Assembly: GCA_007280875.1 (NCBI GenBank)
Contig: QYQJ01000082.1
Location: 1-57,780, forward strand
Length of the DNA stretch: 57,780 bases
Source: Bacteroidota bacterium
Lineage (GTDB): Bacteria > Bacteroidota > Bacteroidia > Bacteroidales > FEN-979
Direction: 5' to 3'
In this document: one piece after another, positions 32,181 to 52,929 of the stretch
Layout of the letters: the number at the start of each line of letters is the position of its first letter
Position numbering within the stretch: the stretch's first letter is position 1
Translations under genes and position numbers: made by a program
Notes under the pieces: model-generated
The model's database searches: none
Told to the model about the DNA's origin: nothing
What the model saw: the letters and a program-made list of their open reading frames with translations, nothing else

Positions 32181-32609
32181 ATGAAAAAGAATGATTTATC
32201 GCAGAATGATTTTCTGGCTGACCTGATGAAGGAGGCTTCGCTTGAGACCCCTTCCGACGATTTTATGGAGAACGTCATGACCGGAGTAGAGGCTATGCCC
32301 GCTTATCAACCCCGCAAAAAACCCTTTTTCCTGTTCATTAAATCCGTAGTCCCCTGGATCCTGCTGATTGGGGTGTTCGTTCTCTATTATACAACCTCTG
32401 ATCTTCCCTTCACCAATTATATTCCCGGAAAAGAGTATGTTCAGAATGTGTTGCTTCCTTCTCTTGGAACCTTTTTTACTTCATTTAAAGAGCTTTTCAG
32501 CACAAAGTTTTTTTCCATCTCCCTGGCGGTTCTGGTCTCCTGTGGAATTTTGTTTGGACTGGAACGATTGATCAACCGCAGATCGGCGCATCAACACTAT
32601 GTCTTGTAA
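32181..32609 (+). CDS. Putative membrane anti-sigma factor
   Basis: 142 aa immediately downstream of the ECF sigma gene. Short cytoplasmic N-terminus followed by TM helices. The assignment is by position only. Confidence 0.4.
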   Translation: MKKNDLSQNDFLADLMKEASLETPSDDFMENVMTGVEAMPAYQPRKKPFFLFIKSVVPWILLIGVFVLYYTTSDLPFTNYIPGKEYVQNVLLPSLGTFFTSFKELFSTKFFSISLAVLVSCGILFGLERLINRRSAHQHYVL

Positions 32610-33467
32610 ATGATTCCCGACGAACTTAAGCTATTTTTACAGAATAGGTACCAAATTCAGTCAATCAGGCCGCTGGTGGGCGGAGATATCAACCAGGTAT
32701 ACCGTCTTGATAGATCGTCGGGAACTCTCTGTTTGAAATTCAATTCCGCTGAACGGTATCCGCAAATGTTTGCAAAAGAGGCCAATGGCCTCTCTCTGCT
32801 GAGGGCATCACAAACACTTCGTGTTCCGGTTGTTGTTGAAGTGATCGACCTTGACTCTTGTTCCGCTCTGTTGCTGGAGTTCATCCATTCGGCCGGGCCG
32901 GTGAATGATTTTATGTTCCGATTCGGTTTTTCCCTGGCAAAACTGCACGATCTGACTGCTTTCGAATATGGTTTGGACGATGATAACTATATGGGATCCC
33001 TGTCGCAGTCCAACAGGAAACACAACAACTGGATTGATTTTTTTCGGGAAGAACGATTGGAAAGACAAATTCATCTCGCCAGGGATTCCGGAAAAATATC
33101 CGCTGAAACTTCCCGGTTTTTCTCCCGGCTTTTCGCCCGCCTTGATCGGTTGCTTTCTGTGGACAGACCCGCGCTGGTGCATGGCGATCTGTGGGGCGGG
33201 AATTTCATGGTTTCCGAAACCGGTGAGGCATGCCTGATTGATCCGGCGGTCTATTATGGTCATCGTGAAATTGACCTGGCAATGACCACTCTTTTTGGTG
33301 GTTTTTCTGCTGACTTTTATACCGGCTATGAAGCCCATCATGAACTGGTACCGGGATGGCGTGAGCGCCTGGATATATATAATTTATACCCTTTGCTGGT
33401 GCATGTAAATCTATTCGGAGGAGGGTATCTTGGTTCTGTAATGAGTATTCTCAAGCGTTTCGGTTGA
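32610..33467 (+). CDS. Fructosamine/ketosamine-3-kinase family protein
   Basis: 285 aa. VGGDINQVYRL, LVHGDLWGGN catalytic loop, IDPA. Confidence 0.8.
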   Translation: MIPDELKLFLQNRYQIQSIRPLVGGDINQVYRLDRSSGTLCLKFNSAERYPQMFAKEANGLSLLRASQTLRVPVVVEVIDLDSCSALLLEFIHSAGPVNDFMFRFGFSLAKLHDLTAFEYGLDDDNYMGSLSQSNRKHNNWIDFFREERLERQIHLARDSGKISAETSRFFSRLFARLDRLLSVDRPALVHGDLWGGNFMVSETGEACLIDPAVYYGHREIDLAMTTLFGGFSADFYTGYEAHHELVPGWRERLDIYNLYPLLVHVNLFGGGYLGSVMSILKRFG

Positions 33468-50398: not shown

Positions 50399-52005
50399 AT
50401 GAAATGGAAATATCTGAAACCGATCCGGGTAGCGATTTCACTCCTGATTTTTGCATTTGTCGCCTGTATTTTCGCTGATATCGCGCTCATCACCACGAAA
50501 GGGCTGATAAAAACCCTGCTCTATCTCCAGTTCATCCCCTCCCTGATCGGCTTCCTGAGTTCGTTTTCCCTGGCTGCAGCGGGATTTCTGTTTATCATGC
50601 TCCTGACCCTTCTTTTCGGAAGGATCTACTGCTCCTCCCTCTGTCCGCTCGGCACGATTCAGGATATCGTAAACGGAATCCGGTCACGATGGAATCCGGG
50701 AAACATATTATCACAATCCAAAATACACTACAGAAAACCGGTACAGTGGGTCAGCTACCCCATCCTCGCTCTGACCCTGCTTCTTTTACTGGCAGGCAAC
50801 CTCTTCCTGTTGACCCTGCTGGATCCTTTCAGTCTGGCTGGACGATCCCTGTCGGGACTGATCGGTCTATTCATTGATCTTCCGGGGAATCCGCTGTTTT
50901 TTTCGCTTGATTCCCTGCGGAGTCCGGAAGGAGAAACAGCCATGCGGACTAGTACGTCCTGGTGCTCCTGGGTGGTCACCCTGACGATGTTTCTGGCTAT
51001 TGTCCTCCTGGCGGTGTGGAAAGGCCGATGGTACTGCACAGTGATCTGTCCGGTCGGGACCCTGCTCGGGATCCTATCCAGGATTTCGTTGTTCCGGCTC
51101 AAACTGGACACTGTTACCTGCAGTGCCTGCGGAAGCTGCATGAAGGTGTGTAAAACGGGATGCATCGACAACGATGCAAAAATCCTGGATTTCGACCGCT
51201 GTGTAGCCTGCTTCAATTGCCTGGAAGCATGTTCGAATGGGGCGATAGGGTTTAAGGTTCAAGGGTCGAGGTTCAAGGGTCGAGGGTCAAGGGTCAAGGG
51301 CCAAGAATCGGGGATCGAAGTTAGAGGATCAAAGTTCGAAGGGAGGAGGGCGTTCCTGAAAAACGCCGTGTTGTCGGTTTCGGTGGCGGTGCCCTCCCTG
51401 GCCATTGCACCGGCCCTTTTCTCCAGGCTGTACGGAAATCCTGCAGAAGAGCTGGCGGGAGGAGAAAAGAATTCAACCGATGAGGAAAATCCCTATCCGG
51501 CTACCCCTCCTGGCTCGGTCAGCGTAGCTTATTACACCGAACGATGCACCTCCTGCCACCTGTGCGTCAGTGTCTGTCCGACCGGGGTATTGCAACCTAC
51601 TATCGGTGCCTTTGGTCTGGCAGGAATCCTCCAGCCGGCAATGGATTTTGAAGCAGGCCTCTGCCGCTACGAATGCACGAAATGTCTGGATATTTGTCCA
51701 ACCGGAGCCATTCTTTCATTATCTCCTGAGCAGAAGAAACGAATCCGGATCGGAATCGCCCGTTTTATTAAAAACCTATGTATCCCGGTAGCGGAACGGA
51801 CTTCCTGCAGCCTGTGCAGTGAACTATGCCCGACCAGGGCCATTACCATGAAGCCCTATCTGGGAGAGCTGACCATACCCGTTATCGATGAAAAAACCTG
51901 TACCGGATGCGGGGCTTGTGAATACATCTGCCCCACCCGGCCTGTCCGGGCCATGTATGTGGAACCGCTGAAGGTTCATACGATTGCAGGGAAAGCAAAA
52001 ACCTG

Positions 52006-52009
<4 letters not shown>
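50399..52009 (+). CDS. Membrane polyferredoxin: NapH-like module fused to a NapG-like 4Fe-4S module
   Basis: Start MKWKYL at 50399. TM helices with CSSLCPLGT and CTVICPVGT, then CSACGSCMKVC and CVACFNCLEAC, then a heptamer-encoded linker. Next come a twin-arginine-like RRAFLK plus a hydrophobic helix, then four more Cys motifs (CTSCHLCVSVCP, CRYECTKCLDICP, CSLCSELCP, CTGCGACEYICP). Confidence 0.75.
51248..51338. repeat. Heptanucleotide tandem array A (about 13 degenerate units, consensus ARGNTCR), translated
   Basis: Units in one 7-nt register: GGGTTTA AGGTTCA AGGGTCG AGGTTCA AGGGTCG AGGGTCA AGGGTCA AGGGCCA AGAATCG GGGATCG AAGTTAG AGGATCA AAGTTCG. They encode GFKVQGSRFKGRGSRVKGQESGIEVRGSKFEG. 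Confidence 0.8.

Positions 52010-52929
<920 letters not shown>

Follow-up and report, generated by a model that had tools for sequence, protein, structure and literature searches.

A translated heptanucleotide repeat array makes up most of the linker before the internal twin-arginine motif of a predicted dual Sec/Tat polyferredoxin from a Bacteroidota bacterium

Introduction

Polytopic polyferredoxins (PFDs) are fusions of NapH and NapG that are inserted into the membrane by both the general secretory (Sec) and the twin-arginine translocation (Tat) pathways (Tooke et al. 2017, eLife 6:e26577, PMC5449189). In these proteins a pair of arginines (RR) stands directly before a weakly hydrophobic fifth transmembrane domain (TMD5), which is followed on its C-terminal side by positive charges, and the handover from Sec to Tat has been reported to depend on the low hydrophobicity of the transmembrane domain and on these charges. 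For the PFD of the delta proteobacterium MLMS-1 (Q1NSB0), export of a reporter was found to be Tat-dependent in the same study. Here we describe a predicted member of this family that is encoded in a stretch of 57,780 nucleotides (nt) from a Bacteroidota bacterium (contig QYQJ01000082.1 of assembly GCA_007280875.1; the whole stretch is called the window below). The linker in front of its internal twin arginines is almost wholly encoded by an array of tandem heptanucleotides. Our analysis suggests that this array is most probably a tolerated, lineage-specific in-frame insert, akin to the short tandemly repeated repetitive (STRR) sequences of cyanobacteria, at a permissive site of a dual Sec/Tat protein.

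A loop before an internal RR has also been studied in the actinobacterial Rieske protein Sco2149, where it tolerates substitutions, insertions and truncations of 30 residues, with a minimum length of about 8 amino acids (aa) (Keller et al. 2012, Tooke et al. 2017). Like this loop, the linker of the window protein is a presumably cytoplasmic tether that would join Sec-inserted helices to an internal RR. However, length (43 aa) and sequence are conserved in the Rieske loop, whereas the PFD linker is hypervariable. Because the Rieske loop tolerates such changes, a repeat can be expected to persist in a tether of this kind.

Tandem heptamers themselves have precedents in the cyanobacterial STRR sequences, in the long simple sequence repeats (LSSRs; Mrazek et al. 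2007) and in the TAACTGA repeats of Beggiatoaceae, Cyanobacteria and some Bacteroidetes (MacGregor 2015, PMC4679880).

Results

The heptamer array

Read in register from position 51248 of the forward strand, the region holds 15 in-phase units (GGGTTTA, AGGTTCA, AGGGTCG, AGGTTCA, AGGGTCG, AGGGTCA, AGGGTCA, AGGGCCA, AGAATCG, GGGATCG, AAGTTAG, AGGATCA, AAGTTCG, AAGGGAG and GAGGGCG). Its core, at 51255–51338, consists of 12 consecutive ARGNTCR units (AGGGTCG, AGGGTCA, AGGTTCA and decayed variants) and spans 84 nt or 28 codons. All 12 core units carry at most one mismatch to ARGNTCR and eight are exact, while the one flanking unit on the 5' side and the two on the 3' side carry two mismatches each and bring the degenerate extent to 51248–51352. 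There is no indel anywhere in the array, which is therefore phase locked. Perfect repeats that are left inside it are two 14-nt copies and one AGGGTCA doublet.

Tandem Repeats Finder (TRF) calls the array at 51254–51305 with a period of 7, 7.4 copies and 82% matches, and also with a period of 14 nt and 93% matches. Sequence identity within the array is 0.67, 0.69 and 0.66 at lags of 7, 14 and 21 and lies between 0.12 and 0.39 at the other lags; in 100,000 shuffles the lag-7 value was never reached (shuffle maximum 0.49). The only higher-scoring arrays in the window are those of the neighbouring PHP gene. The array is translated as GFKVQGSRFKGRGSRVKGQESGIEVRGSKFEG, after which comes RRAFLKNAVLSVSVAVPSLAIAPA. 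An earlier note on this DNA, made from the letters alone, had described a degenerate ARGNTCR array of about 13 units at 51248–51360; the array is real, with 12 core units and degenerate flanks, and the translations given there for the array and the downstream segment match ours exactly.

Not all of the array is free of the conserved fold. The first unit (51248–51254), together with part of the second, codes for the final beta-strand of the ferredoxin fold, which is conserved (G-I-x-Y/F-x in relatives) and is modelled with a predicted local distance difference test score (pLDDT) of about 85. The inserted, disordered part that is made by the repeat thus starts at about residue 288 and covers roughly residues 288–315.

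The sense strand of AGGGTCA reads RVKGQGS across all three frames and is stop-free in any cyclic frame, whereas its complement TGACCCT presents one TGA every 21 nt. Because of this TGA the unit lies in the sense orientation in both neighbouring genes, the second copy being at 52715–52743 in the convergent PHP gene. A test of whether arrays inside open reading frames (ORFs) lack sense-strand stops was discarded as circular, since the definition of an ORF itself excludes stops.

The host protein

The gene that carries the array (50399–52009, forward strand) encodes a polytopic polyferredoxin of 536 aa in which a NapH-like and a NapG-like half are fused in the manner of PFD. Its extent is supported by an identical public protein and by homologues that align from M1. 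The linker comprises the 37 residues between the last cysteine of the NapH-like half and the twin arginines (residues 279–315, 51233–51343). It is followed by the internal Tat motif R316-R317-A-F-L-K321 (51344–51361), which is conserved in homologues, preceded by a glycine and has AGG AGG as its RR codons, and then by a weakly hydrophobic h-region or TMD5 of 21 uncharged residues, N322–S342, with R343 next to it (51362–51427).

Sequence comparison places the protein in the dual Sec/Tat PFD family. BLASTP against residues 1–364 of the MLMS-1 PFD (sequence from the supplement of that paper) gives 27% identity over 298 columns with an E-value of 1e-13, and the RR pairs are aligned. The two proteins share a NapH-like half with four transmembrane (TM) segments, an RR before a weak TMD5 with a basic residue, and a NapG-like domain with four clusters. 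They differ in that two cytoplasmic 4Fe-4S motifs are evident here while three are predicted for MLMS-1 in the paper. They also differ in that the tether before the RR is almost wholly a heptanucleotide array here, and that the host is an uncultured Bacteroidales bacterium.

A search of 5.8 billion proteins returned 2,785 homologues. The best 120 of these are 486–554 aa long and all cover 98–100% of the query; their source names include Bacteroidales/Bacteroidota, Ignavibacteriales, Gammaproteobacteria and Desulfovibrio, with the closest ones from Bacteroidales/Bacteroidota. An alignment of 121 full-length homologous sequences is the basis of all conservation counts given here. Every Fe-S cysteine is invariant in this alignment.

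The NapH-like half begins with four strongly hydrophobic TM segments (residues 13–31, 56–74, 122–140 and 188–206; 50435–51016), which have Kyte-Doolittle values of 2.3–2.7 and are modelled as helices by AlphaFold2 (AF2) at a pLDDT of about 90. A CxxxCP motif follows each pair of these segments (C78/C82-P83 and C213/C217-P218). Two 4Fe-4S motifs that would be cytoplasmic, C241xxC244xxC247xxxC251 and C268xxC271xxC274xxxC278 (51119–51232), come next and coincide with a Fer4_10 match at residues 235–278. The C-terminal NapG/NapF-like domain, which we infer to be periplasmic, holds four 4Fe-4S motifs with 16 invariant cysteines from C383 to C511 (51506–52006) and is recognised by profile matches.

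Pfam reports two Fer4_5 (NapH-type) matches and several Fer4 or 4Fe-4S families in the protein. Among NCBIfam profiles, the N-terminal half matches NapH/MauN and the C-terminal half (residues 357–525) matches NapF and NapG/MauM, all below the cut-off. The scores are 74.5 against a cut-off of 234 and 73.5 against 213 for NapH (NF007013 and TIGR02163), 42.5 against 269 and 46.7 against 178.9 for NapG (NF007012 and TIGR00397), and 65.7 against 102.2 for NapF. Orthology is not given by scores so far below the curated cut-offs, and by sequence the two halves are NapH-like and NapG-like, not orthologues of NapH or NapG. The domain types and cysteine motifs are nevertheless those of the NapH/NapG quinol dehydrogenase of E. 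coli and Wolinella succinogenes (Brondijk et al. 2004, Kern and Simon 2008, as cited in PMC5449189), and the N-terminal Tat signal of NapG corresponds to the internal RRxFLK here. The role, too, is presumably shared, namely electron transfer between the quinol pool or the cytoplasm and the periplasm. Unlike NapH/NapG, the window protein is one polypeptide and not two, and its gene lies outside any nap operon: dnaG abuts it, and a PHP/HisJ-like phosphatase gene and a U32 gene are its other neighbours. A check for napA found two molybdopterin-family matches in the genome, both weak and elsewhere.

The AF2 model, built on the 121-sequence alignment, has a mean pLDDT of 83.8 and a predicted template modelling score of 0.81. 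The flanking Fe-S domains reach a pLDDT of about 85–96, whereas linker residues 295–314 fall below 50. The 37 linker residues include 8 lysines and arginines, 3 aspartates and glutamates and 14 glycines and serines. Foldseek and profile searches of the PDB returned generic modules only (FwdF, MvhB, PsaC, NuoI) and no structure of NapGH or PFD. We also considered AGGAGG at 51344–51349 as a sign that translation of the C-terminal half starts internally, and rejected this: no ATG, GTG or TTG lies at a suitable distance, the product would be devoid of the RR, and AGG AGG are the twin-arginine codons themselves.

Conservation of the internal signal is high. R317 is invariant (121/121), position 316 is arginine in 97 sequences and lysine in 24, and F319 is present in 114 of the 121; the consensus S-[RK]-R-x-F-[LFI]-K is that of a Tat signal, although the window protein itself has a glycine at its first position. 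In additive sums on the Hessa scale, the best 19-residue segment of TMD5 (residues 323–341) scores +3.7, against –1.3 to –2.9 for TM segments 1–4, and the segment after the RR has a positive sum in all 121 homologues. The first charged residue after the h-region is lysine or arginine in 105 of them. We also note that in 49 of the 121 the uncharged stretch after RRxFxK is just 12 residues long and ends at a lysine, often with a small-x-small motif next to it (e.g. KTAFA, AKGAMA, AKEAVA). Judged by sequence, such homologues look more like carriers of a cleavable Tat signal peptide than of a full TM helix, and in some members signal peptidase might set the NapG-like domain free.

The genome of the window encodes TatC (222.8 bits) and TatA (53.9 bits). 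Two further proteins carry canonical N-terminal Tat motifs, MGLDRRSFLKTLG in a four-cluster Fe-S subunit type (C176: 4399–5001) and MKTSRRNFLKTAA at a Gfo/Idh/MocA-like N-terminus (C24: 33099–33782), so ordinary Tat substrates are predicted in the organism as well. On contig C35 the same genome also has a distant counterpart of the fused protein in two parts: a ferredoxin of 199 aa that carries a Tat signal at its N-terminus (MVDRRTFIRTG...; 32560–33159, forward strand) directly precedes a NapH/NosR-like membrane Fe-S protein of about 427 aa (about 33.0–34.4 kb; NapH subfamily 49 bits, below the cut-off).

The earlier note had read the upstream half as NapH-like with two CxxxCP and two 4Fe-4S motifs, the second half as NapG-like, and RRAFLK with its h-region as a Tat-type signal. 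All three readings are borne out, by the invariant cysteines, by the NapF, NapG and MauM matches with four 4Fe-4S motifs, and by the [RK]R pair in 121/121 sequences together with the conserved phenylalanine and the weak hydrophobicity. They are correct yet not new, as the family was published in 2017.

Linkers of related proteins

Linker length ranges from 20 to 58 aa across the 121 homologues with a median of 31 aa, and the linker net charge of the window protein is +5 while the family median is +1. Arrays of other units are found at the same site in relatives (designated by genome numbers). The linker of G009 carries an AAATTCG/AAATTAG array, that of G003 about seven units of GGGATAC/GAGATCC, that of G020 the 8-mer AGAATGCA followed by CAAATCG, and that of G011 an array of the 8-mer TCTTCGCG. 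In 16 orthologous genes no TRF array scoring at least 40 was found outside the linker, which takes up about 6% of the gene length. At the protein level, a significant periodicity of seven residues is seen in 6 of the 121 linkers.

Comparison of two congeners provides a natural case of length change at this site. Their loci (L003 of G009 and L004 of G010) are 93.8% identical over 1,815 columns, and the sole indel, of 21 nt, lies in the linker, where three AAATTMG heptamers amount to seven codons and keep the frame. A flexible linker that is tolerated in front of a signal-anchor helix, as the earlier note also proposed for the array, agrees with all of the evidence, including the predicted disorder and the variable length.

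Heptamer arrays in the genome

The array is not an isolated case. The 3.03-Mb assembly holds 186 perfect heptamer arrays of at least three copies, compared with 3, 7, 47 and 0 for periods of 5, 6, 8 and 9. TRF finds 469 period-7 arrays genome-wide. Long open frames take up 92% of the genome, yet 57% of these arrays lie outside them. A set of 429 arrays falls into 104 canonical units, with about 41–52 arrays belonging to the AGGGTCR family, and the commonest units include AGGGTCG (23 arrays), AGGGTCA (11) and AGGTTCA (7). Arrays are clustered, with 26% of the gaps between neighbouring arrays being shorter than 100 nt against 3% expected, and arrays of different units tend to adjoin each other. 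A second excess class is formed by the 8-nt arrays (the 47 perfect ones and 157 TRF rows).

With the STRR, LSSR and TAACTGA arrays these share their occurrence as hundreds of tandem 7-nt arrays per genome, a limited set of lineage-specific units and a location mostly outside genes. In all of them, stop codons in the unit limit intragenic placement and orientation. Unlike STRR and TAACTGA arrays, the units here are AGGGTCR and about 100 others, the host belongs to Bacteroidales, and 202 of the 469 arrays are translated inside long open frames. In contrast to the known heptamer arrays upstream of start codons, the array at this locus shows no preference for sites just before a start codon. The arrays are analogous to STRR sequences and not STRR in the strict sense, because the host, whose closest homologues are from Bacteroidales/Bacteroidota, is not cyanobacterial.

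The AGGGTCR unit is confined to the genus among the 41 genomes searched: its triplet occurs 35 times in the own genome, six of the 10 congeners have it too, and the 30 genomes from other genera all lack it.

Orthologous loci

The nearest orthologues (G004 at locus L002 and the collection proteins P0001 and P0002) are 59–62% identical to the window protein and are encoded by a single fused ORF. Their linkers are non-repetitive and 21–23 aa long (YRIFRPVPSGSPPDTLNTHS-RR). The P0002 locus has the gene order dnaG-PFD-PHP-U32, as in the window. The AGGGTCR unit must be far younger than the fusion, because the unit is confined to the genus while the fusion spans phyla.

A true split orthologue was sought among 40 relatives and none was found. 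Three kinds of candidates were rejected: the double matches in G015 and G025 lie within single open frames, the match in G017 is cut in two where its contig stops, and the match in G021 is a decayed pseudogene copy. The latter (L019 1007–1755, contig C20) is a polyferredoxin copy adjoining dnaG, with a premature TAG and most of the NapH half deleted; what survives of it are the TM1 region and the region from the RR to the first cluster, in different frames.

A look for a redox partner pointed to DUF362: in two distant loci, one from a Bacteroidales relative and one from Desulfovibrio sp. JY (L030 4073–4999; L029 2899–4999), a gene of this family directly precedes the polyferredoxin gene, the gap being 1 nt. 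No DUF362 was found in the own genome, which is 88% complete.

Outside the assembly of the window, the identical 536-aa protein is present without any indel in four other assemblies, which belong to the same population (1–2 mismatches in 5–7 kb). Three independent short contigs from these other assemblies (3' ends of L024, L025 and L026) stop within perfect arrays of the PHP/HisJ-like gene (52644–52743; GATCTCC, GATTGTT, TTGACCC), while they assemble straight through the decayed array of the polyferredoxin gene. The breaks at the perfect PHP arrays suggest that assembly was difficult there or that array length truly varies.

Discussion

By analogy with PFD, the four Sec-inserted helices would hold the two CxxxCP motifs and the two 4Fe-4S clusters in the cytoplasm. 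A cytoplasmic tether would then lead to the internal twin-arginine signal and the weak fifth segment, and by means of this segment Tat could move the four-cluster NapG-like domain, already folded, to the other side of the membrane. The heptamer array, whose unit family is among the commonest of the roughly 469 STRR-like 7-nt arrays, would have landed in this tether and now make up nearly all of it while being no part of the design. It would survive there because the tether is disordered and neither its length nor its sequence is constrained, the sense unit is stop-free, and 12 units keep the frame. What we infer from these data for this organism is that export depends on Tat, that the linker lies in the cytoplasm and that the insert is selectively neutral, and a tolerated in-frame insert is the explanation that we consider probable.

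Several points weigh against this explanation. Tat dependence has been demonstrated only for a homologue of 27% identity, and there in reporter fusions in E. coli. Our hydrophobicity values are crude additive sums on the scale of Hessa et al. 2005, not those of the position-dependent predictor used by Tooke et al. (dgpred). Since the net charge of the linker exceeds the family median, selection for an effect on topology in the membrane or on the handover between Sec and Tat is possible. The decay of the array to 82% matches fits age under neutrality and under selection on the peptide alike. Finally, the four other assemblies represent one population, so they say little on length polymorphism.

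The charge of the linker leads to the alternative that the array is adaptive, in that a longer, basic and Gly/Ser-rich tether would better present the Tat signal to TatBC or keep the loop cytoplasmic, with expansion tuning the length. Recurrence of arrays at the linker in at least five lineages, the net charge of +5 with 14 of the 37 residues being glycine or serine, and the Rieske work, in which the tether has a minimum length and positive charges of the loop affect Sec interaction, are all in keeping with such a role. However, most family members, including the nearest relatives, manage with non-repetitive linkers of 21–31 aa, well above the minimum of about 8 aa. Moreover, the composition of the peptide is dictated by the DNA unit and not chosen, and the same arrays occupy intergenic DNA and disordered loops in unrelated proteins throughout the genome. 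We therefore regard an adaptive array as unlikely. A slightly bolder and somewhat more doubtful extension is that the tether is a recurrent landing pad for lineage-specific 7–8-nt arrays, where steps of 21 nt tune tether length, charge and the Sec-to-Tat handover, and where occasional out-of-frame slips uncouple the two halves.

Out-of-frame slips are also the essence of a further alternative, in which the array is a slipped-strand phase switch and a change of 7 or 14 nt leaves a NapH-only protein of about 303–317 aa. Simulated changes of –7, –14 and +7 nt do end the protein shortly behind the array, at 317, 303 and 310 aa, while –21 stays in frame; the two 14-nt copies and the AGGGTCA doublet persist, arrays in the clade do change length, and contigs of other assemblies break inside the perfect PHP arrays. 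Against this, the degeneracy of the array (82% matches) suppresses slippage, all five assemblies share the in-frame length, the sole natural indel at the site among relatives is the in-frame one of 21 nt, and the protein is an internal component of respiratory type rather than a surface antigen. The observed data give switching no support, and we consider it very improbable.

That the array created the fusion by replacing or reading through a spacer between a napH-like and a napG-like gene, as the earlier note had thought possible and as might be suggested by its place precisely where the two domains join, just ahead of a motif that is N-terminal in NapG proteins, and by the remark of Tooke et al. 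(PMC5449189) that fused PFDs may stem from adjacent genes, is contradicted by thousands of single-ORF homologues with a conserved RR across phyla, nearest relatives that are fused without an array in dnaG-PFD-PHP synteny, a unit far younger than the fusion, and, among the 40 relatives, a sole broken copy (L019) that is a decayed pseudogene. Of the two observations that the earlier note had named as telling against its own proposal, the first, a fused ORF with a non-repetitive linker, is what the relatives have, whereas the second, an RR segment without Tat features, does not hold, as those features are present.

No new mechanism and no new gene-fusion event is revealed by this locus. What it indicates is that the stretch before an internal Tat signal can be nearly any sequence, even a translated "junk" repeat, which extends the mutagenesis of the Rieske protein to a natural case. 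For the heptamer arrays it suggests that their persistence inside genes is confined to disordered sites, to the stop-free strand and to steps of three units. For annotation, the gene is best described as a dual Sec/Tat-type NapH/NapG-like polyferredoxin, and neither as two genes nor as NapH or NapG.

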